Positions 1,603-43,224 of a stretch of 64,000 nucleotides of DNA are shown one piece after another. Position numbers and translations under genes: made by a program. Origin of the DNA: Methanobacteriota archaeon. Its GTDB lineage: Archaea; Thermoplasmatota; E2; DHVEG-1. The stretch's first letter is position 1, and each line of letters opens with the position of its first letter. The stretch is taken from positions 288,001 through 352,000 of the forward strand of contig CAVYNH010000006.1 of the NCBI GenBank assembly GCA_963769885.1, written 5' to 3'. The notes below the pieces were generated by a model that was given only the letters and a program-made list of their open reading frames with translations, ran no database searches and was not told where the DNA came from.

Positions 1603-1787
1603 CCGGATGCCTCCGTCGCCGCGCCCATCGGGCAGGTCTTCACACAGATATAGCAACTCGAACACTTCTCAGAGTCGACCGTAGCCTTCCCCGCGAACAT
1701 GGACATGGCGTCGCTTGGACAGACGGCGATGCAACCGCCGCAGGTCAGGCATTTCACGCGATTCACGGTCGCTTTAGGCTTTGCCAT
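1599..1787 (-). CDS. 2[4Fe-4S] ferredoxin, likely GGR partner
   Basis: CLTCGGCIAVCP and CSSCYICVKTCP; translationally coupled to the GGR gene. Confidence 0.9.
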   Translation of the reverse strand: MAKPKATVNRVKCLTCGGCIAVCPSDAMSMFAGKATVDSEKCSSCYICVKTCPMGAATEASG

Positions 1788-2346
1788 AGGATTCACCCCG
1801 GACAATCCCCGATGCAATCAGATGGGCGAGACGGAGCGGCTCAGGGAGTACTCCCCGAATCGTGGCACGACTTATAATCCCTTGCGCCTCCTCAGGAGAA
1901 CAGCCGACGAACTTCGCATATAAGGGGTTATGCGCAGTCTTGAACTCATGCAGCGTCCCCTCTTTGTGCAGGGCGAGGCGGCGCTCCCAGTCCGGGAAAT
2001 GCTTGCGCAGTGCATGTTCGATTGCCTGAAGATCGGGTTTGTCTCTCGTTATGGTCAAGACAGGGATCTGGATCGCTTCATACAGCCGTTGGATGTCGAC
2101 GATGTTGAAACCGCCCAGGCAGATGCCGTCGAGCATCACCGCGCGCAACTGCTCCCGATGCCGGGTCGTCTGGACCATGGTGATGACGACGTCCGTGGCA
2201 TCGGTCCCATCGATGGTCACCTGGCTGCGGAGCACGGCCTCGAGGTACTCGCCGCCGCGCATGACCACGCCGACGACCATGGTGGAGGTGTCGGTGAAGG
2301 TGAACGGCGCGTCGTCGATACCCAGGATCCTGATCTGCTGTTTCAT
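1774..2346 (-). CDS. DUF99/UPF0215 endonuclease V-like protein
   Basis: RILGIDD, VMLDG..GGFNIVDI, PEPLRLAHLIA motifs. Confidence 0.85.
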   Translation of the reverse strand: MKQQIRILGIDDAPFTFTDTSTMVVGVVMRGGEYLEAVLRSQVTIDGTDATDVVITMVQTTRHREQLRAVMLDGICLGGFNIVDIQRLYEAIQIPVLTITRDKPDLQAIEHALRKHFPDWERRLALHKEGTLHEFKTAHNPLYAKFVGCSPEEAQGIISRATIRGVLPEPLRLAHLIASGIVRGESYGKA

Positions 2347-2446
2347 GCCTTGCCGGGGAACCACTCCAGAATCATAAGAATGTTTCGCATTCTCTACAAA
2401 GGGAAAAAGTTTTTTTTAAAGGGAACCTAGGGAAGTTTGATTTTTA

Positions 2447-2477
2447 CGTCCAGGGGTTCAAATCCCTTCCCCTACAC
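2447..2477 (+). repeat. tRNA 3'-end fragment copy 1 (T-arm plus acceptor strand, tRNA-Leu-like)
   Basis: CGTCCAGGGGTTCAAATCCCTTCCCCTACAC; AGGGG/CCCTT stem around TTCAAAT; no 5' tRNA half upstream. Confidence 0.8.
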
Positions 2478-2659
2478 ATAATATTATATCAGGTGAAACA
2501 GAAGCATTGATATAGTTTCTAATACAGAATATTAATGGTTTTTTGTGGGAATATTAAAAGAACAAAAAAGAAAAAGATAAGGATTTTTTAGTTTCGTACA
2601 ATTTTAAAGAGAAAAATCTTATATAGATTTAAACAATAATAATTAATAGTGAATAGAAA

Positions 2660-2749
2660 ATGAATACAAAAAAGAGATTATTACTAATTGCAATATTACT
2701 CATTATCATCTCTTTAATAACGATGAGAATAATAATTACTGGTGAATAG
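2660..2749 (+). pseudogene. 29-aa hydrophobic ORF (truncated small membrane protein)
   Basis: MNTKKRLLLIAILLIIISLITMRIIITGE; first unit of an imperfect tandem duplication with 93-bp spacing. Confidence 0.4.
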
Positions 2750-2916
2750 AAACTGTATACAAAAAGGATTTTTTAATAATTGGAATAATACTCATTATCA
2801 TTTCTGCAATATCTTGCGTTTTTTGGATACCGCATTAGAGAGCAACAACTAATAATATTTTTGAGAGTGACATAACATATATTATTGGTACTTTAGGTGT
2901 AATTTTTTTACAGTAA
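2742..2916 (+). pseudogene. Degraded small membrane protein, paralog of the 2660 ORF
   Basis: KKDFLIIGIILIIISAISCVFWIPH*RATTNNIFESDITYIIGTLGVIFLQ*; start lost, internal TAG 2836-2838. Confidence 0.4.
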
Positions 2917-2953
2917 GCCTTACTTTAAAGATGTTTATAAAGTACAAAGAAAC

Positions 2954-3024
2954 CAACGGGAGTAATTATTATCCTTCTGTTAGAATTTAACCGGTAATCT
3001 GGGGTTCAAATCCCTTCCCCTGCA
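2954..3024 (+). repeat. Cassette right-end element with tRNA 3'-end copy 2
   Basis: CAACGGGAG...TCTGTTAGAATTTAACCGGTAATCTGGGGTTCAAATCCCTTCCCCTGCA. Confidence 0.8.
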
Positions 3025-3099
3025 TAATTTTTATTTAAATTGATGAAAAATATAATTATATACTTTAAATTTCATTCTAATATGAAACATGGGGAAGTA

Positions 3100-4290
3100 A
3101 TGAATAAGAAATTATCTCAAATAATAGCACTTTTTCTCTGTAGTATTTTATTTGTTGTAACGTTTTCTGGTTGTATTGAAAAGAAGCAAAAACCAGAGGA
3201 ATATAAAGAAACATTACTACCAGAAGTTAAATTGGACCAACCTTCAATCTTACCAGATTGGAAGGATGGAGAATACCATGATTACTATGGCACAATGGAA
3301 ATGCTGAATGATTTTAATGGTAAATATCCTGATTTAGTAAATGTATTTTCTATTGGAAAAAGTGTTCTTGGAAAGGATATTTGGTGTATCAGGATAACCA
3401 ATGAGAAGAACAATACGATAAAGTCATCTTGTCTTATTGATGGTTGTATCCACGGACAGGAATGGGAAGGAGGCGAGGCGTGTTTGTATCTTGCTGAGTA
3501 TCTTCTTATTAACTTTGATGCCAATGAAACAATTACTCATATTCTCAATTCATCTGAAGTATATCTGATTCCTTTAGTAAATCCTGATGGCAGACAAGAT
3601 GATAACCTATATAATGACAATGGTATAAATTTGAATCGTAATTTTGATATTGATTTCGGTAGAATAAGAGGAGGTGTTATACCTTTAGGGAAGTTATTTG
3701 GTCGTATAAAAATCCCTCGTATCCCTATTAAAATTTCTCGAGAGTTTACACTCTTACATAAATTGTTTCCAAGTTTTCCATTATGGCTTACAAATTGTGG
3801 TCGCCATCCTTTTTCAGAACCTGAAACTCAAGCAATGAGAGATTTTATGAGAGAACTTGAGAATAATGATTTTTCTTTTTATGTAAATTGTCATACAGCC
3901 TGGCACAGTTTTGGGGGTCCTTGGGATGCTTTTAAACCTCCTTTTGAGAAATCAAAACAGGAACAATATATCTTTGATTATGTAACAGAATGGGTTGTTA
4001 AGAATACAGAATATGAAAAGTATAAAAATTTGTTGTCTTACTTAAGTGGTGAATCATCTGATTGGTGTTTCAAAGAATTTCGCATTCCATCATTTGGGTT
4101 TGAAATTCTATCACAGGATTATGACTGCTATACAGGTGGAGGGAAACATGACCATCTTGTTCATTGGATGGAAACTACCCTTCCGGTTTTCATGTATCTC
4201 CTTGTGAACATTGATAATCTGCGTGAATGGAGAACACCTGATATTCAACCATCTTTGCCTGAAGGTGTGCCACCAGAGCCTCTAAAGTAA
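3100..4290 (+). CDS. M14 family zinc carboxypeptidase, predicted lipoprotein
   Basis: Signal ending FSGC; HGQE (HxxE), NPDG, NLNRNF, PFSEPET, NCH, FGFE; AT-rich codons. Confidence 0.88.
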   Translation: MNKKLSQIIALFLCSILFVVTFSGCIEKKQKPEEYKETLLPEVKLDQPSILPDWKDGEYHDYYGTMEMLNDFNGKYPDLVNVFSIGKSVLGKDIWCIRITNEKNNTIKSSCLIDGCIHGQEWEGGEACLYLAEYLLINFDANETITHILNSSEVYLIPLVNPDGRQDDNLYNDNGINLNRNFDIDFGRIRGGVIPLGKLFGRIKIPRIPIKISREFTLLHKLFPSFPLWLTNCGRHPFSEPETQAMRDFMRELENNDFSFYVNCHTAWHSFGGPWDAFKPPFEKSKQEQYIFDYVTEWVVKNTEYEKYKNLLSYLSGESSDWCFKEFRIPSFGFEILSQDYDCYTGGGKHDHLVHWMETTLPVFMYLLVNIDNLREWRTPDIQPSLPEGVPPEPLK

Positions 4291-4310
4291 TCTTTTTTAT
4301 AAATTTATGT

Positions 4311-4370
4311 CAACAGGAGAAATCTATTAATTTTACAGGTATTTTGGTGTTCAAATCCCTTCCCCTGCAC
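4311..4370 (+). repeat. Cassette right-end element with tRNA 3'-end copy 3, followed by T6
   Basis: CAACAGGAGAAATCTATTAATTTTACAGGTATTTTGGTGTTCAAATCCCTTCCCCTGCAC. Confidence 0.8.
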
Positions 4371-4566
4371 TTTTTTGTTAAAGTTTTCGCATAGTCAATA
4401 ATACATAGTTGTATAGGTTTTTAAAGGGTTTTTTAAAAAAAGAATCACCAGAGTAAAAACTTGTAAATTATATAATCCACAATAAACCATGGTTTATTTT
4501 TTTTAAAAAAGGCAATCGTCCGAAATAAAGAAATGATATTAAAAAAATCAAGAAAGAAAACAGAGA

Positions 4567-5163
4567 CTACTTCTTCTTCAGGACGGCCTGCCGACCCGCC
4601 TCGAATGCCCTTTTGTTGAATTCCTGATACTTCGTCGGTACATCATCAAGGATCGCCTGCAACAGGACCTCAGGGCTGAATGGCAGCACATCCACCGCGG
4701 ACAATGCCCCCAGGAGAACGATGTTTTTGGTGATGACCGCACCCGCCTGCCTGGCTAGCGCGATGGCATCCACAGGATAGACCTTCGCGAACGACGCGAG
4801 CTCCTTGAGAATGACCTCGAGCTTCGGATACGGCACGCCGCCGGTCGCGACCGTGAACGGGATCGTCGGGTTCGTATCGGTCACCAGCTTCGTCTTCGCA
4901 TGGACATATATCACGTTCCGGAGAGCCTCGACCGGCTCCGTACTCACGAGCGCATCCGCGGTGCCCATGGGGAGCATCGGGCTTTCGACCGCGCCCATGC
5001 GCACTGTGCAGACGACATCGCCACCGCGCTGCGCCATCCCATGGATTTCGGAGACATAAACAGGGACACCGGCCTTGACGGCCGCGTCGCCGAGCATCTT
5101 CGCTGCGGTGATTACGCCTTGGCCGCCGACGCCGGTGAGCACGATGCTGATCTTTCCCTTCAT
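4567..5163 (-). CDS. iorB: Indolepyruvate:ferredoxin oxidoreductase beta subunit
   Basis: MKGKISIVLTGVGGQG, SEIHGMAQRGG; true start 5163, coupled to the iorA stop. Confidence 0.93.
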   Translation of the reverse strand: MKGKISIVLTGVGGQGVITAAKMLGDAAVKAGVPVYVSEIHGMAQRGGDVVCTVRMGAVESPMLPMGTADALVSTEPVEALRNVIYVHAKTKLVTDTNPTIPFTVATGGVPYPKLEVILKELASFAKVYPVDAIALARQAGAVITKNIVLLGALSAVDVLPFSPEVLLQAILDDVPTKYQEFNKRAFEAGRQAVLKKK

Positions 5164-7040
5164 GAATTCGCCTCCAGGTGGATGGCCTTGAACGGGCAGA
5201 CCTGGACACAGTTCCCACAGCCGTTGCACTGCGTCGGGTCGATGTGGACGCTGCCGTCCTCGGCGAAGTAGAGCGCAGGGCAGCCAAACTTTCCGATGCA
5301 GGTCTTGCAGCGCTTGCAGACGGACTGGTCGATGGCGTAGAGGCCGATGGTTTCCTGCGCCTTGCGCTTCCGGGCGAGCTCGAGGAGGATGCAGGGGGAT
5401 TTGCTGACGACGACTGAGGGCCCCTTGAAGGCGAGTGCCTTGGCGAACGCCTCGCTGGTCGCCTTGATGTCGTTGGGGTCGACGACGTGGATGTCGGTGA
5501 CGCCGAGGCCTTTGACGACGTCTTCCACATGGATCTGCGTGGCTTTTCGTCCCATGCCGTCTGAGTCGGTGCCGGGGTGGGGCTGGTGTCCGGTCATGGC
5601 GGTGGTGTGGTTGTCTAGGACGGTGATGACGACGTTGTGTTGGTGGTGAACCGCGTCGATGATGGGGGGGATGCCGGAGTGGAAGAAGGTGGAGTCGCCC
5701 ATGAAGCTGATGATTTTTTGGTCGGTGCTGACGGCGAAGCCGCAGGCGGTGCCGGCGTTGCTGCCCATGCAGAGGAGGACGTCGGCCATTTCGAGGGGTT
5801 TGGCTTTGCCGAGGGTGTAGCAGCCGATGTCGGTGGGGTAGATGGTGTCTTTGGGCGCGATTTTTTTGATGGCGTAGTAGGTGGCGCGGTGGGGGCAGCC
5901 GGGGCAGAGGGAGGGTGGTCGGCTGGGGAGTGGGAGGCTGGATTTTTTTGGTGTGGGGTACGGGTTTTTGATGGTGAAGGTTTTGCTGAGGGCGTTGGCG
6001 ACGATGTCTGGGGTGTATTCGTAGAGTCTGGTGAAGTGGCCGGTGGTTTTGCCGAGGATTTTTACGGGGAGGTTGTGGTCGTAGGCGAGGGTTTTGAGTT
6101 GGTTTTCGAGGATGGGTTCGAGTTCTTCGACCACGAGGATGGTCTTGTGTTTTTTGAGGAAGTCGGTGCACAGTTGGGTCGGCAGGGGGTTGGTCATGCC
6201 TAGCTTCAGTATTTGGGTGTTGAGGTGGAGGTCGGTGGCGAGTTCTTTGACGTAGGTGTAGGAGACGCCGGAGGCGATGATCCCGATGGTGCTGGGGTTG
6301 TTGATGGTGGTGATGCCGTTGAATGGGGATGTTTCGGCGATCTCTTCTGCTTTTTGGAGGGTTTTGAGGAGTTCGGGGTGTTTGGCGCGGGCGGTGGCGG
6401 GCATGGTGACGAGGAGGGGGTCTTTGACGAAGGTGCCTTTGCGTCTTGGGGGGGTGAGGGGGCCGTAGGTGACGGGGGCGCGGGCGTGGTTGAGGCGTGT
6501 GGTGGTGCGCATGAGGACCGGCAGCTTGAGGTGTTCGCTGAGTTCGATGCCGGCTTTGGCCATGTCTTTGGCTTCTTGGGGGGTGGTGGGTTCGAGCATG
6601 GGGGCGCCGGCGAAGAGGGCGTAGTAGCGGTTGTCTTGTTCGTTCTGGGAGCTGTGGCAGTAGGGGTCGTCGGCGCTGATGATGAGGTGGCCGCCGCGGC
6701 AGCCGATGTAGAGGTAGGTCATGAAGGTGTCCGAGGCGACGTTGAGGCCGACGTGTTTCATGCAGGTGAGGGCGCGCAGGCCGGTGAAGCTGGCTGCGGC
6801 CGCGATTTCCAAGGCAACCTTCTCGTTGACCGCGTATTCCATGTAGAAGCCGGGGTCTTGGTTGTTTTTGAGGGCGGTCTTGGCGATGCGGGAGAAGGTG
6901 TCCGCGATCTCAGAGGCGGGGGTGCCGGGGTAGGTGGTGGCGATGTCGACGCCTGCTTCCAGCGCTCCCCGTACGATGGCCTCGTTGCCGAGGAGGAGTC
7001 GGGTGGTGCCTGGTGTCGGGCTGGTCAGGTCGGTTGTCAT
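5160..7040 (-). CDS. iorA: Indolepyruvate:ferredoxin oxidoreductase alpha subunit
   Basis: LLGNEAIVRG, YPGTP, MKHVGLNVA, SSQNEQD, CPGCPH, GDSTFFH, C-terminal ferredoxin motifs. Confidence 0.95.
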   Translation of the reverse strand: MTTDLTSPTPGTTRLLLGNEAIVRGALEAGVDIATTYPGTPASEIADTFSRIAKTALKNNQDPGFYMEYAVNEKVALEIAAAASFTGLRALTCMKHVGLNVASDTFMTYLYIGCRGGHLIISADDPYCHSSQNEQDNRYYALFAGAPMLEPTTPQEAKDMAKAGIELSEHLKLPVLMRTTTRLNHARAPVTYGPLTPPRRKGTFVKDPLLVTMPATARAKHPELLKTLQKAEEIAETSPFNGITTINNPSTIGIIASGVSYTYVKELATDLHLNTQILKLGMTNPLPTQLCTDFLKKHKTILVVEELEPILENQLKTLAYDHNLPVKILGKTTGHFTRLYEYTPDIVANALSKTFTIKNPYPTPKKSSLPLPSRPPSLCPGCPHRATYYAIKKIAPKDTIYPTDIGCYTLGKAKPLEMADVLLCMGSNAGTACGFAVSTDQKIISFMGDSTFFHSGIPPIIDAVHHQHNVVITVLDNHTTAMTGHQPHPGTDSDGMGRKATQIHVEDVVKGLGVTDIHVVDPNDIKATSEAFAKALAFKGPSVVVSKSPCILLELARKRKAQETIGLYAIDQSVCKRCKTCIGKFGCPALYFAEDGSVHIDPTQCNGCGNCVQVCPFKAIHLEANS

Positions 7041-7408: not shown

Positions 7409-8488
7409 ACGAGGCGGAACTGGATCGCGGTCGGGATTATCCTGTTGGCCCTCGGGCTGACTGGTCAGACGTGGGCCTCTCCGTTTGAGGAGGGGCATTG
7501 GTCTTCGTCTCTAGGAAAAATATTGTATGTCGGTGGGAGCGGTCCAGGCAATTACACCGTGATCCAGGACGCGGTCGACAACGCGAGCGCTGGGGACACG
7601 GTGTTCGTCTATCGGGGGGTCTACAGCCATTATTTTCCGGGTTACCAAGCGTGTGTCACGATTACGAAACGCATTCGGCTTCTCGGTGAGGAGAAGACCG
7701 CGACCGTCATCAATGGGAGCCAGTGGCAGCGGGTGGTGATCATCGATGCGGACGGGGTGAACATCAGCGGATTCACCATCCAGAACGGGGGGACGCCGGG
7801 CTTCGGCGGCCATTTCGGGGCAGGCATCGACATCGAACGAAACCAGCATATTGTCGTAACCGGCAACATCATCACCCGGAACAAGCTTGGGGTGTTGATC
7901 GAGGCCAATTCCTCGAACGTCATAATCTCTGGTAATGTCTTCGAGGGGAACTACGAAGGCGTCGAGACCATGGGTTTGAACTACTACATCGACATCACCA
8001 ATAATACCATTGTGAACAACACGAACGGATTGGTCCTCGCACCAAGAACACAGACCATCCTCAACAACACCATTGCAGACAATGCGGTCGGATTGATGGC
8101 CTTTGGTGGGGATGCTTCAAGCGTCGTTTCGATGAATCAGATTCAGGACAACGGTGTAGGGATGCAGCTGGCGAACACGCGGCTGACGGTTGCGAAGAAT
8201 AACTTCATCAACAACACCAGGCAGATAGATATCCGAAAAGGAACCATACTTTTAGCGAGCCCACTTCTCCTGATCGTGCGGCAGCATTGGAGGAATAATT
8301 ACTGGAGCAACTGGGAGAAAACGACTCCGAAACCAATTCTTGGAAAAGGGGACCTCGATATCCCGGTCTTCATCGGCGGCGGGCTCCACTATTTTCCCCT
8401 CATATATTTCCCGTTCGTTGAGTTCGACTGGCACCCAGCACCAGCGCCGTACACGATCCCAGCCATGAGCCAATACGGGACGAGTTAG
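7409..8488 (+). CDS. Secreted parallel beta-helix (NosD/CASH) protein; apparent ACG start
   Basis: LYVGGSGPGNYTVIQDAVDNA, N-rich beta-helix repeats, FDWHPA; signal peptide RRNWIAVGIILL begins at ACG 7409 after GGAGGAG. Confidence 0.8.
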   Translation, partial: TRRNWIAVGIILLALGLTGQTWASPFEEGHWSSSLGKILYVGGSGPGNYTVIQDAVDNASAGDTVFVYRGVYSHYFPGYQACVTITKRIRLLGEEKTATVINGSQWQRVVIIDADGVNISGFTIQNGGTPGFGGHFGAGIDIERNQHIVVTGNIITRNKLGVLIEANSSNVIISGNVFEGNYEGVETMGLNYYIDITNNTIVNNTNGLVLAPRTQTILNNTIADNAVGLMAFGGDASSVVSMNQIQDNGVGMQLANTRLTVAKNNFINNTRQIDIRKGTILLASPLLLIVRQHWRNNYWSNWEKTTPKPILGKGDLDIPVFIGGGLHYFPLIYFPFVEFDWHPAPAPYTIPAMSQYGTS

Positions 8489-8697
8489 CACGTAGACCGT
8501 GACACGATTTCTATCGTGAACAAAAGCGGAAGGTTTTAGAACGCTGGGTGGATTGGGGCTGCTTGCACGTGGAGAGGAGCCTCGCAAGACACTAGAAAAA
8601 CATCACCGGGATGCACACAAACGTAACATCGGCCTTCTGATGCTTTTCCAACATGGCACCGTGCCCCTTTCAACCCCAACATCTGTGGAGCAGAGCA

Positions 8698-8814
8698 ATG
8701 GCATTGCTATCCGACAAACCCATCCAAGTCATCCCGCCGAAAACGGCACCCAAACAAATCCCCTTGTTCGAAGAGCAGGACGACGGCAAACTCATCCCCT
8801 ACAACCGCACCTAA
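8698..8814 (+). CDS. Possible 38-aa small protein
   Basis: MALLSDKPIQVIPPKTAPKQIPLFEEQDDGKLIPYNRT; GGAG upstream. Confidence 0.35.
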   Translation: MALLSDKPIQVIPPKTAPKQIPLFEEQDDGKLIPYNRT

Positions 8815-8832
8815 CATAAAAAAAAACACGGC

Positions 8833-8946
8833 TTACTGGGACTCTTTCTCTTTTTCCTCCTCCTCAAGATCCTTCTTCTTCGCCTGTTTCTTCTTCAAAT
8901 ACGCAGTCAACGTCTCCTCTTCCTCAGGCAACGGAACTAACTGCAT
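8833..8946 (-). CDS. Possible 37-aa highly charged small protein
   Basis: MQLVPLPEEEETLTAYLKKKQAKKKDLEEEEKEKESQ; GGTGG upstream, T-tract downstream. Confidence 0.45.
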   Translation of the reverse strand: MQLVPLPEEEETLTAYLKKKQAKKKDLEEEEKEKESQ

Positions 8947-27914: not shown

Positions 27915-29006
27915 ATGGAAATTAAGTGCGATGTTCTTGTGGTTGGAGGAGGGCCAGCGGGGTTATCAGCGTCGATTCTTTGTGGAAAGAAAGGACTCTC
28001 GACACTTGTCATTGAAAAGAAGAACTTAGGGGGACCCGATCAGACTTCATACGATATAACTGAAGGGAATAGCATCCAGAATATATTACCAGTACTCAAC
28101 ATTACGCCTCATAAAATATCCTCGATTTCCGAATGGAATTCTCCTCATCATCGATTCATCTTGGATTCAAATATTCAAGACTACTACTTTAAAAGAGGTC
28201 CTGAAACCGATTCTTTGGAAAATCAACTCCTTTCCGAGGCTGTGAAAAACGATGTGAAAGTCTTCTTCAACGTATCTTCGCTTTCCCTGTCCATCAGCCA
28301 CAACAATGTTCATTCAGTGACTCTAAACAAAAAACACATGAAGATTGTTCCTCGATATCTTATTGCCGCAGATGGGCCATTTTCAACGGTTAGACAAAGA
28401 CTAAAAACTAAAGTCAAAAAAATCGCGGTCTTTGAAGGATTCGGGGCTGTGTTTCAAACAAAATCGAGCCTGGAACTTCCTCACGCAAAAATTTATTTTG
28501 ATCAGAGATTTTCTCCGGGCGGTTATATATATTCAGGTCGAGTTGGTTCGGATATTTTTTATTGCATTGTCATCGACAAGGCTTCTGCACAAGGAATGAA
28601 TCTTAAATCAAATCTCAGACGCTTTTTGAAAAAACAACACATTGATTATCCTGCTATTAGAACCTATTTTCGAGGCCAGGGAATAGCGGGATTCCAAAAA
28701 GGAGTCATTGGTAATACCCTATTCGTTGGAGGCGCTGCTCATCTGTACGATCCCTTTCTTGGATACGGGTTGAACTTCGCCATGGAATCAGGTTCCACTG
28801 CAGCTCATGCAATCATCAATGATAATGTTCTTCACTATACCCGTTATATTAATACAATCACGACAAGGTTTCGAAAACGCTGTAAGGCAAGAGACATATG
28901 GAAAAAGGCCGATAATGATTTCTTTGATAATCTCATTCAATCCTTTGAAGGTCAAGGTAAAAAGGATAAAAACATCAATGAGATTTTAAAAATGTTTGAG
29001 GAGTAG
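27915..29006 (+). CDS. Divergent GGR-family FAD oxidoreductase
   Basis: CDVLVVGGGPAG, AADG, VGGAA..DPFLGYG; low GC. Confidence 0.8.
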   Translation: MEIKCDVLVVGGGPAGLSASILCGKKGLSTLVIEKKNLGGPDQTSYDITEGNSIQNILPVLNITPHKISSISEWNSPHHRFILDSNIQDYYFKRGPETDSLENQLLSEAVKNDVKVFFNVSSLSLSISHNNVHSVTLNKKHMKIVPRYLIAADGPFSTVRQRLKTKVKKIAVFEGFGAVFQTKSSLELPHAKIYFDQRFSPGGYIYSGRVGSDIFYCIVIDKASAQGMNLKSNLRRFLKKQHIDYPAIRTYFRGQGIAGFQKGVIGNTLFVGGAAHLYDPFLGYGLNFAMESGSTAAHAIINDNVLHYTRYINTITTRFRKRCKARDIWKKADNDFFDNLIQSFEGQGKKDKNINEILKMFEE

Positions 29007-29025
29007 CCGTGTTCCTCGTGGTCGT

Positions 29026-30204
29026 ATGAGAAAAATACAATGTGATGTCTTGGTTATCGGTGCCGGCCCTGCAGGTAGCTCAGCCGCGTGGTCATCGGCA
29101 AAGGAACACCTCGATACGATAATCATTGACAAAAAAAGGGTACCTGGTAAGGACGCCTGCGCAGAAACACTCAGCAAGGCGTTTCTTGGATATCTCCCAT
29201 TCAAAATTCCCAGCAGGTTTTTGAAATGGCCACTGGACGGCCTAGAGTTCTATTATAAGGATTTCCACATTACCAGGAACGAGGATATCTGGTGGAAATC
29301 GTATCCATTGAACAGAAAAGAATTCGACCCCTATCTCCTCGACGTCGCCATACGGCAAGGCGCGCACTATCGTCCACGTACCAAGTTTATCTCATTGAAG
29401 CATGATAGAAATTTCAAGGTAAACGAGGTCGTGGTTAAGGATCTTGATAAGAACAGAAAGATAACGATACAACCTAGGGTCGTCATTGCAGCCGATGGCG
29501 TTCAGTCCAATGTTTTGAAAGCCATTGGAAAGACAACACCACAAAAAACCGCCATGGGGTACATTAAAAGTTACGAGTATCATAACCTGAAACTAGAAAA
29601 CGCGCACTATGGACATATTTATTTTGGGGCATTTGCTGAAGGGGCGTATGCGTACATTTTCCCAAAAAGTGAGACGATAGCAAACATCGGGATTGCAACG
29701 CTTAGCCCGTACCACCTTGAATCAAAATTCAACACGTTCCTCAAGATTATATCCAAGCAGTTACAGGGATCGAAAAAAGCAGTCGACCGTAGTGGGAAAG
29801 CCCCGATAAAAAATCCGTCGAAGAAAGTCGTCTATGGGACTATCATTTTTGCTGGTGATTCAGCGAATCAAAATCTCAAACCATTTGTGGAAGGCATCCA
29901 ACCCGGCATTATCTGCGGCGCGTTCGCAGGAAAAGCTGCAGCAGACTATCTTCGAACACAGAAGAAATTAGATGCAACCTACGCGAGGTTGATCAATGAA
30001 AAGATGGGGAAGCTTTTCTTAGAATCAGACGCTATAGGATCGGAATTAGTGTCATCGTACGAACAGAAAAATAAACTTAGGTTCCTTCAGGAAATCGCTA
30101 TGTTTTCCTATGCTTTAAACGATGACGATATGAGAAAAATAAAAAAATTGGACGAGCATCAAGCGCAGCTTTTCCTTGAAGAAAAATTACGTTCCAAAAT
30201 TTAA
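29026..30204 (+). CDS. GGR-family FAD oxidoreductase
   Basis: CDVLVIGAGPAG, DACAE, RKEFD, AADG, YAYIFP, AGDSA; low GC. Confidence 0.85.
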   Translation: MRKIQCDVLVIGAGPAGSSAAWSSAKEHLDTIIIDKKRVPGKDACAETLSKAFLGYLPFKIPSRFLKWPLDGLEFYYKDFHITRNEDIWWKSYPLNRKEFDPYLLDVAIRQGAHYRPRTKFISLKHDRNFKVNEVVVKDLDKNRKITIQPRVVIAADGVQSNVLKAIGKTTPQKTAMGYIKSYEYHNLKLENAHYGHIYFGAFAEGAYAYIFPKSETIANIGIATLSPYHLESKFNTFLKIISKQLQGSKKAVDRSGKAPIKNPSKKVVYGTIIFAGDSANQNLKPFVEGIQPGIICGAFAGKAAADYLRTQKKLDATYARLINEKMGKLFLESDAIGSELVSSYEQKNKLRFLQEIAMFSYALNDDDMRKIKKLDEHQAQLFLEEKLRSKI

Positions 30205-31437
30205 TATGTTAATGCTTTCATAAAGATGGTGCGGAATCATATCCTGATTGACTATGCTCTCTCCGCCTGAAAATAACACTATAAAATTTCCTGTAGAATT
30301 CTTTGCCATTTCTTGAATCGTGTAGATTTGATTTCCCAGGGTCTCAATATAGGTTTCGCACATGACACCGAGCATAGTTTTTCTTTGCTGGGCAAATAAC
30401 TCCTTACAATCAGTGATTATTTTTTTGCCGGTGAGCCCGAACAGTTCTAATTCTTTTGATTCGATTCTATTAGCGAAATACACAGATTCTCCGAGAAGCA
30501 ATCCTAGCATCGCAGCGTGAATCTTGTCTTTTTTGTGATAGCAAAAAGGATAATAAAAAGCCTGGGAGTAGAATTTTTCGACTTCCTTAATATCCTTCTG
30601 ATGCCAGTTCAAAATTCTGCATAATTCTTGGGTAGCTTTTTTCCCATCGATTTCTTTCACGGTTCTCTGATCTTTCGCCAGAGAGATCTTAATTTTTCTT
30701 CCACGTGGCAAGAGAGGCGTCACTGTCTTGAATTGGGGGCTTTTCGTTCCAGATATCCCAAGGAGCATCACGGCATTTTTCAAAATATTTTTCTCGTAGA
30801 ATTGGTAATTCCGAGAAAGCTTTCCATCGTCATAACACACCGATCCTATTATTGGCTTATCGAGATGGTTCGCAAGGTACTCCAAGACTTCGTCTGCTCT
30901 ATCCGTCCCCATGTTAGACTTCCAAAGCAGTGGTACCATATTCTTCATGAGGCCGCCAAAAGCTTTTGATTTAATCACGGTCTGTTTTCCAATAATGGGG
31001 AAGGTAGGAATGATAGGACCGGAAATAAGCTCAAGGTAGAAATCTGGTGTGACATCCTGTTTCTTCATCATTTCGATGCATTGTCTCGCGGCCTTTCTTG
31101 GATTTCTTTTGGTATTGTGTCCAACCCCAATTGTTACTTGCATTTTGGGATCTGAAACAGCTAGCGCGCATGCTCCTCGAGCGTAGCAACCATAATTGTT
31201 CATAAATCCCGCAGCAGTCCCGCCTACAAGCGGCGTCCCCTCCGGTAAGACATCCCAGACTCCGTTCAGAAACTCCTGGAATCCCCCGTGCTTCTCGTAA
31301 TGAATCGTGGAGAACAGCAGGAAGAAATCCGGTGGCTGGTGCAGCTTGCGGATTGTGGATTCTGCGACCTCGCGGCCCGCCTCGCGTGCATCCCACTTGC
31401 GGCTCATGCCGACCGCGGCTTCAAACTCCTCGCTCAT
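30187..31437 (-). CDS. FIST N-terminal domain protein
   Basis: AREAGREVA, FFLLFST, TPLVGGTAAG, IDGKKA, FSGGE pattern. Confidence 0.75.
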   Translation of the reverse strand: MSEEFEAAVGMSRKWDAREAGREVAESTIRKLHQPPDFFLLFSTIHYEKHGGFQEFLNGVWDVLPEGTPLVGGTAAGFMNNYGCYARGACALAVSDPKMQVTIGVGHNTKRNPRKAARQCIEMMKKQDVTPDFYLELISGPIIPTFPIIGKQTVIKSKAFGGLMKNMVPLLWKSNMGTDRADEVLEYLANHLDKPIIGSVCYDDGKLSRNYQFYEKNILKNAVMLLGISGTKSPQFKTVTPLLPRGRKIKISLAKDQRTVKEIDGKKATQELCRILNWHQKDIKEVEKFYSQAFYYPFCYHKKDKIHAAMLGLLLGESVYFANRIESKELELFGLTGKKIITDCKELFAQQRKTMLGVMCETYIETLGNQIYTIQEMAKNSTGNFIVLFSGGESIVNQDMIPHHLYESINILNFGT

Positions 31438-37917: not shown

Positions 37918-38712
37918 ATGAAGAAGTTAGGTTCTCTCGGGATTGTTCTTCTACTGTCTTTTAGTGCTTTGGCTCTTCCTTTGGTGAAGATACAAGCATC
38001 TCCTGTTTTGGATACTCCTAAAGAACCTCATGTGCATCTCGGTGGAACCCAAGGACTGAATGGGTGGTATATCAGTGCTGTTTCTGCTTTCATAGATTGT
38101 TCCGCTTTTTATAAGATTGATAATGGTAGTTGGATGGTTTACACTTTTCCTTTTATGATATCAGGCGATGGAAGACATACTTTAGTTGCTACAGATAATT
38201 TATACAATCCAAACTGGACAGAGGAGTATCACATCAACATTGATGAAACTCCCCCTGTAATATATTTGGCTGAATGTCCTATGTTCTCCAGTAAGACTTT
38301 TACTGCAAATTGTTCCGATGCTACGAGTGGTATGAATTATACAGAATTTTATTTGAATGGAAAATTACGTGAAACCGATGCCGACTATCCATATGAATGG
38401 ACGTACAATTATGATACTCCACCATTAACCTTAATTGGAATCATCAAAAAGGCTCAATTTTCAGGGTATATAACAATCCCTATTATCATCGGCATTACTA
38501 AAAACAATAGGGATTTGATACCTGAGGCCAAAGCTTATGATAATGCAGGGAACAATGCCAGTGTTACGGGTGGCTTTGGCTATTGTCCTCCTTACTGTCT
38601 GATGCTCTCAAAGGTATTAGTCCTTCCAAATAACTATACAGGGCATCTTGGGCGGTTCTTTGTTCATGCTACCTTCTATGAGAATAATACTTCGATGGAG
38701 AGAACCAAATGA
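37918..38712 (+). CDS. Secreted Ig-like domain protein in a low-GC patch
   Basis: MKKLG signal; GLNGWYIS, IDETPP, SDATSGM, PYEW, AYDNAGN. Confidence 0.8.
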   Translation: MKKLGSLGIVLLLSFSALALPLVKIQASPVLDTPKEPHVHLGGTQGLNGWYISAVSAFIDCSAFYKIDNGSWMVYTFPFMISGDGRHTLVATDNLYNPNWTEEYHINIDETPPVIYLAECPMFSSKTFTANCSDATSGMNYTEFYLNGKLRETDADYPYEWTYNYDTPPLTLIGIIKKAQFSGYITIPIIIGITKNNRDLIPEAKAYDNAGNNASVTGGFGYCPPYCLMLSKVLVLPNNYTGHLGRFFVHATFYENNTSMERTK

Positions 38713-38911
38713 AGAAGTGGATAGTGGTTGGAGTAGTCCTGCTGTTTCTTGGATCAAGCATTCCTGTCTTAGCCTATTCAACTGAGAAGACCATCCTTCC
38801 TTCATCTACAGGTTTCAACAATTGCCTTACTGGCTGACTTTCATTCTTGATTTCATCTTTAGTATCCTTTGTTACATCGGTGTTATACTAAACTGCTGGT
38901 GGGCAATCTAA
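38709..38911 (+). pseudogene. Frameshifted or internally deleted small secreted protein
   Basis: MKKWIVVGVVLLFLG signal stops at 38837; hydrophobic tail LPYWLTFILDF...WWAI in another frame. Confidence 0.5.
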
Positions 38912-39020
38912 TAATTTTCGAGCCAAAAGAGGAATGGAAACTCACGCCACTGCTGGATGGTTTTCTAACCCTTATTGAGGTTTAGCGACTCATCCGTTTT
39001 TCTATTGAATAATGGTTATT

Positions 39021-39401
39021 TCAAGATATTTTTTTATAGGCAGCAGGGTCAAGGAGGCTGGAGAGTTCTGTGGGGTTTTTGACCTCGATCTGCGCAATCC
39101 AACCATCGGTGTAAGGGTTTTTATTGATGAGCTCGGGGTTGTCGTCGAGTTTGTTGTTGACCGCGGTGATCTTGCCGGTGACGGGGGCGTAGACCTCGGA
39201 GACGGATTTGACGGATTCGACAACGCAGAGCTCGTCGCCTTTCTTGACTTCCTTACCGACGGGTGGGAGTTCGACGAAGACGATGTCGGTAAGCTCTGAC
39301 TGGGCGTGGTCCGTGATGCCGACGGTAGCCTGTTTGCCGGTGACCTTGACCCATTCGTGTGACTTGGTGTACTTCAAATCGTCGCGGACTTCGTTGGACA
39401 T
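39021..39401 (-). CDS. gcvH: Glycine cleavage H protein
   Basis: SHEW, VGITDHAQ, VESVKSVSE lipoyl motif. Confidence 0.96.
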   Translation of the reverse strand: MSNEVRDDLKYTKSHEWVKVTGKQATVGITDHAQSELTDIVFVELPPVGKEVKKGDELCVVESVKSVSEVYAPVTGKITAVNNKLDDNPELINKNPYTDGWIAQIEVKNPTELSSLLDPAAYKKIS

Positions 39402-42382: not shown

Positions 42383-43224
42383 AATATAGTCTTCTGTGGA
42401 AGAGGCATAGACAGAATGTGCTTTTTCTCCTGAACTATTATGTCTTAAACCCCTCGACAGAATGATTTATCGTCTATCCCTCAAGCGATGTACCGATTGA
42501 CATTATTTTGTGCTTCTGTCTTCTTCAAGCAGTCCCTAAGCTCTTCTATGGACAGCCATACTCCAGTTTCATCGAGGCTAGAGCTTCCTTGATACTGTTT
42601 AGTTCGTCCTCTATGACAGTTAAACCTTTATTCATTGCATCCCCTCCTATTATGGACTATTTTATAAAGACTAGGAATAGTATTAAATCTGCCTTAAAAG
42701 ATAACTTCTTGGGGAAAGCAATGAAAAAGTTGCTTGTAGTCGGTGTGAGCATCCTTGCTGTATTTCTTATGGTTCTTGCCTCTCAAACATCTGTAGTGGC
42801 ATATAATCAAATTAAGTCTGCGTCTGATAAACCAATATCTATTCTTAAGACAATTCTCTCACGCACGCAAGATATTAAAAAGCTTGGTATTGGTAAAAGT
42901 ATCTACATCATCATCGCAGTCATTTTCCTTCGGTTCTTTTTATGGTTGTCTTTGAACTCGGGTTTGCCATTGTACTATGCATTTATTGATGCGGCCATAT
43001 GGCCTGTGTTCGTTGTAGTGGGTACGGGGTTGGTGGTATCCTTCCTTTTTCTCTGGATTTACGGATATATCTATTTAATCATCCACGGACACTTGCCTCC
43101 CTGGCTTTCCAACCCTCCCACGTTAAATCTAAAGAATTAGGGTAGGTTGAAGGAACTTCCTACCCATTTGATGTTATATTTCTTCCCAAAATAGCAGTTT
43201 TCTCCTTAAGGAATATAGTCTTCT
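42383..43224. mobile_element. Low-GC insert bounded by the 13-bp direct repeat AATATAGTCTTCT
   Basis: Repeat at 42383-42395 and 43212-43224. Confidence 0.45.
42721..43140 (+). CDS. Small secreted/membrane protein
   Basis: MKKLLVVGVSILAVFLMVLAS signal; hydrophobic C-terminus. Confidence 0.7.
   Translation: MKKLLVVGVSILAVFLMVLASQTSVVAYNQIKSASDKPISILKTILSRTQDIKKLGIGKSIYIIIAVIFLRFFLWLSLNSGLPLYYAFIDAAIWPVFVVVGTGLVVSFLFLWIYGYIYLIIHGHLPPWLSNPPTLNLKN

Follow-up and report, generated by a model that had tools for sequence, protein, structure and literature searches.

We analyzed a 64,000-nt stretch of DNA from an uncultured Thermoplasmata archaeon (hereafter, the window), which corresponds to positions 288001-352000 of contig C6 in genome G000 (2.09 Mb, 55% GC, 92% complete) and contains a small AT-rich block consisting of two gene cassettes delimited by copies of a tRNA-Leu 3' end. 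Throughout, G000 denotes the genome of the window, G001 the sister species, other G labels related genomes, L labels fetched loci and C labels contigs. The block, about 2.1 kb long (2393-4511), is AT-rich and lies between two minus-strand genes of about 60% GC, which encode an endonuclease dU family protein and a POR-domain (pyruvate:ferredoxin oxidoreductase) protein; the GC fraction is 0.25-0.35 over positions ~2400-4500 compared with 0.58-0.64 in the flanks. A 21-mer core, GTTCAAATCCCTTCCCCT(A/G)CA, occurs in three direct copies on the plus strand (2456-2476, 3004-3024 and 4349-4369), nowhere else in the window, and in 0 of 100 dinucleotide-preserving shuffles. These copies divide the block into cassette 1 (~0.55 kb) and cassette 2 (~1.35 kb), confirming an earlier note, made from the sequence alone, that described three tRNA 3'-end repeats separating units of about 0.5 and 1.3 kb. 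The features of the block and its flanks are as follows.

1774..2346, minus strand: endonuclease dU family gene, host left flank, ~59% GC (Pfam PF01949, E 9e-65; 91% identity to the G001 orthologue)
2393..2446, unstranded: left end of the block, AT-rich, upstream of copy 1, no counterpart in G001 (G001 homology stops at 2392)
2447..2476, plus strand: copy 1, the array head, a tRNA-Leu-like 3' fragment made of CGTCCAGGG and the core with a G-to-A change (CCCCTACA)
2477..2953, plus strand: body of cassette 1, without a long open reading frame (ORF), with a 92-nt tandem duplication
2954..3003, plus strand: P arm of cassette 1, long-type attP, CAACGGGAGTAATTATTATCC...GAATTTAACCGGTAATCTGGG
3004..3024, plus strand: core copy 2, identical to the tRNA-Leu 3' end
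3025..3099, plus strand: short P' side of the M14 cassette and a promoter-like region (AAAAATATAATTATATAC at 3046-3063)
3100..4290, plus strand: M14 zinc carboxypeptidase gene with a lipoprotein-type signal, cargo of cassette 2, apparently intact (Pfam PF00246)
4311..4348, plus strand: P arm of cassette 2, short-type attP, CAACAGGAGAAATCTATTAATTTTACAGGTATTTTGGT, which aligns with 28 other short-type arms
4349..4369, plus strand: core copy 3, followed by CTTTTTT
4370..4511, unstranded: right end of the block, AT-rich, no counterpart in G001
4567..6171, minus strand: POR-domain gene, host right flank, ~60% GC (Pfam PF01558, E 2e-36)

Over its 21 nt, each of the three cores agrees with the tRNA-Leu 3' end at 20 or 21 positions. 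Copies 2 and 3 additionally share an upstream arm (2984-3031 and 4329-4376, 83% identity), with the motif CAAC(G/A)GGAG farther upstream, at 2954 (CAACGGGAG) and 4311 (CAACAGGAG); the arm of copy 2 is long-type and that of copy 3 short-type. Copy 1 is preceded by CGTCCAGGGG instead of the shared arm. The shared element of copies 2 and 3, the tRNA-like lead of copy 1 and the T-run after copy 3 are thus all present as previously described. The long-type arm of cassette 1 is not confined to this locus, showing 85-90% identity over ~70 nt to arms in L077, L075, L085, L083, L039 and L091. The possibility that the P arm is a decayed whole tRNA-Leu, raised by likeness seen by eye (CAGGAGTA, TCAGAAT, CCGGTA), was set aside as unproven, with global alignment against shuffles yielding p of 0.07-0.6.

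Cargo of the two cassettes

The ORF at 3100-4290 encodes an M14 carboxypeptidase (Pfam PF00246, E 5e-42, profile positions 3-261 of 286) with an N-terminus that, as read from the sequence, is lipobox-like (TFSGC), so that the M14 peptidase lipoprotein recognized in the earlier note stands. We found M14 homologues in 27 Thermoplasmata loci, and several of these are cassettes in the same type of setting. Window cassette 2 (3047-4371) aligns over 1340 nt, at 82.8% identity, with a cassette located behind tRNA-Leu(CAG) on contig C7 of G000, with the homology ending at the core; M14 cassettes also lie behind tRNA-Leu(UAA) in L039, tRNA-Leu(CAA) in L044 and tRNA-Leu(GAG) in L042, and are bounded by cores on both sides in L037 and L038. 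A TATA-like block upstream of the M14 genes is conserved in C7, L035, L039 and L042. The likeness between the C7 and L039 copies begins immediately after the core, and the P' side of the window cassette is shorter than in either of them. In the M14 tree, the window and C7 copies are not sisters, with weak support (SH-aLRT 88 and 94), hinting that the two may have been acquired separately; in the sister species G001, tRNA-Leu(CAG) is not accompanied by an M14 cassette. In L039 (2499-5087), which comes from a Lac Pavin metagenome-assembled genome (MAG), two tandem M14 paralogues share one core-to-core interval behind tRNA-Leu(UAA), with no core between them.

Cassette 1 encodes ~30-aa hydrophobic peptides within its 92-nt tandem duplication (2635-2719 and 2728-2811). 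A related metagenome contig contains cassette 1 with a single 92-nt unit; the duplication is therefore recent. The previous description of this cassette as encoding decayed membrane peptides holds with respect to the short hydrophobic peptides, and the decay does not follow from what we observed. No homologue of the cassette 1 interior was detected in any of the fetched loci.

An empty site in the sister species

In G001, the endonuclease dU and POR genes are ~115 bp apart, the 2.1-kb block is absent and no tRNA lies between them; the same two genes are adjacent in another genus as well (G008), with neither a core nor an arm between them. Given this empty site and the conservation of the gene pair, the block 2393-4511 is an insertion in the G000 lineage. 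Its outer ends are not cores: ~54 nt precede the copy 1 fragment and ~140 nt follow copy 3, both absent from G001, and hence site-specific integration does not explain how the block arrived at this locus. The 140-nt tail has no homologue in any of the fetched loci.

ARAGORN predicts no tRNA genes in the window, and the only Rfam match there is a 9.4-bit tmRNA fragment (E 0.53). The earlier idea that the block had lost the 5' half of its tRNA finds no support, given that the sister site has no tRNA and that foreign DNA extends outside copies 1 and 3 as well. Comparable array heads, 'tccaggg + core' with no intact tRNA-Leu, are found also in L082, L083, L091 and L095. The block in the window is an ectopic part of a tRNA-Leu-type cassette array, made up of a head fragment and two cassettes, that came to lie between the endonuclease dU and POR genes once the lineage had separated from the sister species, probably through an event that was not site-specific.

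Two candidate joints were considered and rejected. Site-specific entry through a pseudo-att (attachment) site in G001 (TTCCAAATCG compared with TTCAAATC) was discarded as the block does not end at cores, and the microhomology TTTCGCAT (2383-2391 and 4385-4393) was rejected by inspection, its arrangement misfitting a simple crossover. The window contains further AT-rich islands, below 38-39% GC, at 28039-29063, 29919-30705, 38012-39043 and 42537-43083; such islands make up ~9% of the G000 genome (192 kb).

Cassette arrays behind tRNA-Leu genes

Four G000 tRNA-Leu genes, with anticodons CAA, GAG, CAG and UAA (the last bearing an intron), end in the core 21-mer, which covers their T loop, T stem and acceptor strand; the fifth tRNA-Leu gene, UAG, has a variant 3' end. 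All four core-matching genes start with GCAGGGG, as had been predicted for the tRNA-Leu from which the repeats derive. Each of the four is followed by AT-rich DNA with one or two extra armed cores (C4:197702; C6:741884 and 740955; C7:164949; C7:509892 and 511170), preceded by ...CCGGTAA(a/t)(c/t)TGG(g/t), within the general arm consensus CAACAGGAG...CCGGTAAnnTGGk. Unlike the window block, these four arrays have an intact tRNA-Leu at the proximal end. Their units carry one gene each, encoding a nitroreductase, a PAS protein, an ICMT-like membrane methyltransferase, a second M14 peptidase, a NosD/beta-helix protein and two secreted proteins of unknown family.

The nitroreductase cassette, A1, is located behind tRNA-Leu(CAA) in G000, and a 93%-identical copy adjoins the flank of the tRNA-Leu(UAA) locus in G001. 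The host flanks in this comparison are only 72-85% identical between the two genomes, so that the cassette is more conserved than the genome surrounding it, which points to recent movement.

A looser arm-plus-core pattern was detected in 53 of 107 genomes of the same family other than G000, as many as 19 times in a single genome; across ten further families of the class, it was detected in 0 of 89 genomes. The strict pattern yielded 25 stretches among 185,579 species genomes, all in Thermoplasmata-type MAGs, and no matches in the viral contigs scanned. In the fetched loci, we identified 82 distinct copies outside tRNA genes, in which the arm is conserved and the cargo is unrelated, bearing out the expectation of the earlier note that the end element would recur on other cassettes and that longer arrays would be found behind intact tRNA-Leu genes, which they are, in G000 and its relatives. 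Of these copies, 42 align and form two classes, one of ~59 nt (short) and the other ~12 nt longer (long). The 55 non-redundant core-to-core intervals have a median length of 908 bp (range 345-4776 bp), and the longest arrays comprise five cores (L081 and L091). The cargo genes run in either direction with respect to the arm and often encode a signal peptide. Related genera with 30-35% GC carry the same cassettes, in keeping with the low-GC donor proposed previously.

Integrases with matching attachment sites

A search with PF00589 identified no integrase in the window block or in the other G000 tRNA-Leu arrays; the G000 genes that match this family adjoin tRNA-His, tRNA-Arg and tRNA-Pro, sit ~1.5 kb from a tRNA-Gly, or reside in other islands. 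Relatives do encode integrases linked to tRNA-Leu, such as the 316-aa protein behind tRNA-Leu(CAA) in G012, so that the linked integrase foreseen in the earlier note exists in the family, with none of the corresponding clade found in G000 itself. These proteins belong to an XerA-like family present in 17 of 108 genomes of the family. The best match of the candidate integrase is archaeal XerA (152 bits, under the 220-bit equivalog cut-off); on the integron integrase model TIGR02249, candidates score 38.8 and 19.3 bits compared with a cut-off of 265 bits.

In every locus in which a tRNA is visible, this integrase gene starts 504-622 bp behind the 3' end of the tRNA, and a 181-aa ORF (ORF181) precedes and overlaps it; the only family match of ORF181 is a weak one to DUF6364 (E 0.009). 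When leaves of the integrase tree are labeled by the neighboring tRNA, the labels require 8 changes compared with 16.9 in shuffles, and one clade (support 100/99) adjoins tRNA-Leu genes with anticodons CAA, CAG, UAA and GAG, plus one tRNA-Ser(GGA).

Two integrase-bearing elements carry attachment sites of the cassette type. The 9.4-kb element in L133 (G070:C27) comprises tRNA-Leu(CAA), ORF181, the integrase (7998-8942 of the locus, minus strand), an MCM helicase, a resolvase and attR, and its attR arm matches the cassette-arm profile (nhmmer E 3.7e-12). The 17.6-kb element that extends from tRNA-Leu(CAG) in G097:C291 has ORF181 and the integrase at its start and ends with a long-type arm like that of window copy 2 (E 2e-14). 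We compared the ORFs of at least 80 aa from the L133 element, including the integrase, ORF181, MCM and resolvase, with the cassettes and detected no fragment of any of them in the 55 cassette intervals.

CCGGTA was considered as a general P' motif, given that it occurs in 4 attL sites of integrase elements, and was rejected, being found at only 4 of 86 cores and overlapping the promoter-like TTTAAATA. The elements in L133, L134 and L137 encode a serine recombinase (resolvase), confirmed with Pfam in L133 only.

Probable mobilization in trans and alternative explanations

In the cassettes, identity is confined to 21-24 nt of the T loop and acceptor strand, with a variable P arm on the left and host or next-cassette sequence on the right. 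Such confinement of identity to the core, with the P arm on the left as in attR, fits classical tyrosine-recombinase integration. Each unit is laid out as a core, a short P' side, one cargo gene, a 40-50-nt P arm and another core, and would represent the integrated form of a small circular DNA, with an attP sharing 21-24 nt with the T-loop and acceptor end of tRNA-Leu. We think it probable, with a good deal of residual doubt, that these units are non-autonomous, att-bounded cassettes mobilized in trans by an XerA-like tyrosine integrase; the action in trans, which the earlier note had already proposed, is one that we, too, infer. This enzyme would integrate, excise and shuffle the recombinase-less units, and its likely source would be integrative elements of 9-18 kb that use the same tRNA-Leu core and the same types of P arm. 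The crossover would fall within GTTCAAATCCCTTCCCCTGCA. Each new integration would restore the tRNA and push older units outward, giving rise to an array. With the core shared by the isoacceptors, a cassette could land behind any of them, and with the core conserved across a family that spans 30-60% GC, cassettes could be transferred between genera, which would explain the presence of AT-rich cassettes in a GC-rich host.

Several observations weigh against this scenario. No integrase of the Leu clade was found at E 1e-20 in G000, which is 92% complete, or in G001, and none is among the hits listed for the genomes with the most cassettes, such as G107 with its 19 copies. The distal motif CAACAGGAG is missing from both integrase-element arms examined (L133 and G097). 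The P' side is not conserved among cassettes, CCGGTA following only 4 of 86 cores, and the window block itself is not bounded by cores at its outer ends. We detected no circular cassette or excision product in metagenome contigs, where joints at cores are ambiguous: those of the 'skip' and 'goes back' kinds have short sides and come from mixed communities, and were not counted as excision or circles. Finally, homologous recombination could take place between cores of 21-60 nt, and this, too, would shift cassettes from one tRNA-Leu locus to another.

Some of these observations are what would be expected if the units were decayed, immobile remnants of full-size integrative elements, akin to cis-mobilizable elements (CIMEs), moved by homologous recombination between their shared cores and arms or in cis when a neighboring complete element excises. 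Integrase loss and tandem integration at one site are documented for archaeal elements (PMC8371274, PMC6563490). The match between the P arms of cassettes and those of integrase-bearing elements is also predicted by a remnant origin, the failure to find a Leu-clade integrase in G000 agrees with it, and the shortened P' side of the window M14 cassette and the lack of a long ORF in cassette 1 have the look of erosion. Against this, fragments of the integrase, ORF181, MCM and resolvase occur in none of the 55 intervals; rather than showing the broad spread of deletion products, the sizes cluster at that of a single gene (median 908 bp). Furthermore, one and the same cassette keeps its boundaries from genus to genus and from one isoacceptor to another, and the cassette shared between sister species is 93% identical as against 72-85% for the genome. 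Because no element-gene relics are found, the sizes are those of single genes and relocation in the sister species appears recent, we favor mobilization in trans over its main rival, inert remnants, which we deem less likely; because no circle was observed and the integrase was found neither in G000 nor in cassette-rich genomes such as G107, the remnant explanation nevertheless keeps appreciable weight.

The arm and core might instead be a structured nucleic acid, either a tRNA-like RNA or tRNA 3' half on cargo transcripts, or an attC-like fold recognized by an integron-type integrase. In this respect, the arm sequence CAGGAGAA and the core sequence TTCCCCTG form an imperfect inverted repeat (7 of 8 positions pair), and the by-eye likeness of the long arm to pieces of tRNA-Leu, described above, points the same way. 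Against this, neither ARAGORN nor Rfam detects a tRNA-like gene, the predicted folds of five arms are no more stable than those of shuffles (z +0.2 to +0.8), the consensus fold retains only four invariant pairs, without covariation to judge, and alignment of the arm with tRNA-Leu does not exceed shuffles. In addition, GGTG breaks the T stem in many copies, cargo genes are found in both orientations with respect to the arm, and the integrase candidates, at 38.8 bits, come nowhere near the 265-bit cut-off of the integron-integrase model; overall, we consider such a structure very improbable. Barely more than nominal weight can be given to an artifact of assembly or binning, with AT-rich foreign DNA misjoined into a GC-rich contig. 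The sharp GC step would fit such a chimera, and the left junction at 2393 is covered by none of the metagenome (Logan) contigs. Yet the block is embedded in a contig of 785 kb, and the genes on either side of it are neighbors in both the sister species and another genus; an independent wetland-metagenome contig (~94% identity over 765 nt, 4349-5101) extends from core 3 through the right junction as far as the POR gene. The earlier note had made its case depend on reads spanning both junctions; the right one is bridged by this contig, and the left one is uncovered. Arrays of the same AT-rich type behind four G000 tRNA-Leu genes, and AT-rich islands amounting to ~9% of the genome, also speak against a chimera.

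Relation to known systems

CIMEs are defined as decayed integrative and conjugative elements or integrative and mobilizable elements (PMC5704250), and tandem accretion of streptococcal CIMEs at att sites is reported by Pavlovic 2004 and Bellanger 2011, as conveyed in that review. The cassettes mobilized in trans, as we envisage them, resemble CIMEs in having att-type sites (attL/attR) on both sides, in lacking integration genes and in lying in tandem at the 3' end of a target gene; in the window, cores bound both cassettes and the block encodes no recombinase. Mobilization of CIMEs depends on an incoming element with a matching integrase, as it would here. In contrast to CIMEs, the units described here are archaeal, consist mostly of single genes of 0.35-2.7 kb, form arrays of up to five cores and have all tRNA-Leu isoacceptors as alternative platforms. 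With regard to the origin of CIMEs by decay, the cassette arms are homologous to those of integrase elements, and no element-gene relic is found in the 55 cassettes.

Ghaly et al., in 2022, are said to have reported integrons in archaea. Like integrons, the cassettes form arrays of mostly single-gene, recombinase-less units with one terminal recombination site each and one platform site. Unlike in integrons, there is no IntI at the array, the site consists of a tRNA 3' end and an arm with no attC-type fold, and the cargo lies in either orientation, with a conserved TATA-like sequence upstream of the M14 gene. The likeness is therefore one of layout only: three defining features of integrons were tested, and none was found. 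To this extent, the integron-like capture suggested in the earlier note is sustained in its layout and not in its machinery, which is XerA-like rather than IntI. We tentatively put forward a broader view, to which we attach somewhat less than even confidence, that a comparable mode of gene capture has been assembled from different parts, namely, tRNA platforms, attP-armed single-gene cassettes and transiently delivered, clade-specific integrases derived from XerA that act in trans within and between genera of this one family of uncultured Thermoplasmata. The platforms would be tRNA-Leu most often, and also tRNA-Ser, Glu, Pro, Arg and Gly, each integrase clade would be tuned to one tRNA 3' end, and the integrases would be delivered by integrative elements, at least one of which encodes MCM.

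The tRNA-proximal islands of Prochlorococcus built by tycheposons (bioRxiv 10.1101/2020.12.28.424599) are similar in that a tyrosine recombinase acts at tRNA 3' ends, partial tRNA copies are scattered, older material is displaced outward, and elements with an integrase are both scarcer and more short-lived than the islands. The material of those islands is mostly without clear boundaries, whereas here we find mostly sharp single-gene cassettes with a conserved arm; moreover, the hosts are archaeal, the integrase is XerA-like and the replication gene encodes MCM. Among the hallmarks of att-flanked tRNA islands, the window has tRNA 3'-end repeats and an empty site in a relative, and lacks an intact tRNA and an integrase of its own. 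Archaeal elements encoding MCM and a tyrosine integrase, and gene capture at tRNA genes, are described by She 2001 and Krupovic 2010, as presented in PMC8371274 and PMC6563490. The putative helper elements, such as the one in L133, are of this type, and tandem reuse of tRNA sites is known. Unlike in the SSV (Sulfolobus spindle-shaped virus) 'suicidal' type, the integrase gene is not split by integration, and the abundance of small cassettes sharing the att site of such elements is not described in the literature searched, in which we found no account of single-gene cassette arrays with a conserved attP arm at archaeal tRNA genes.

If mobilized in trans, the cassettes would provide a compact route for the exchange of single accessory genes in a family of sediment and wetland archaea. 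The cargo seen so far includes secreted peptidases, beta-helix proteins, a nitroreductase, a PAS-domain sensor and a membrane methyltransferase. Were this the case, exchange would proceed across genera that differ by more than 20 GC points, with the invariant tRNA-Leu 3' end serving as a universal landing pad, and the system would fulfill in archaea a function equivalent to that of integrons and CIME accretion, and would help to explain the AT-rich islands of G000. The defined set of integrase, attP and attB is directly testable and might be turned into a genetic tool. For annotation, the tRNA 3' fragments in these MAGs should be taken as marks of cassette boundaries and contig breaks, not as pseudogenes.

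Arrays at other tRNA genes

Non-tRNA copies of the last 18 nt of G000 tRNAs are most numerous for Leu (eight) and are found also for Pro, two Arg genes, Ser, Phe, Glu, Asn and His. Behind tRNA-Pro(CGG), an array at G000:C1:42299-46300 contains the core TCGCATCAGGCCCAT three times, each followed by CAGGAGAAAAGTC, with copies 2 and 3 preceded by an inverted CCTCCTGTTGAC. The motif CAGGAG is common to this array and the tRNA-Leu arms, but is arranged differently in the two. CAGGAG[AT]AA occurs 75 times in the G000 genome compared with ~30 expected by a rough estimate, and CTACAGGAGAAAA or a similar sequence lies 10-25 nt past the 3' end of tRNA-Leu(CAA), tRNA-Glu-type cores and tRNA-Met (C4:200012, C6:14258, C6:22285 and C4:138572). 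A copy of the tRNA-Phe 3' end is found inside the tRNA-Leu(CAA) array (C4:199845) and one of the tRNA-Arg(GCG) 3' end inside the tRNA-Pro array (C1:46070); hence, arrays mix att sites of different tRNA types.

Two other kinds of integrase locus were encountered in G000. Adjoining the tRNA-Leu(CAG) array on C7, the region 166566-179464 includes a tRNA-His, a 417-aa integrase frame (C7:167137) and a second tRNA-His 3' end 12.8 kb away, and looks like an ordinary complete integrated element. Integrase genes of ~330 aa at C6:676965 and C4:124360, 86% identical to each other and with no tRNA seen nearby, may represent two copies of another mobile element; the one on C4 overlaps an AT-rich island, and the one on C6 lies between two such islands.

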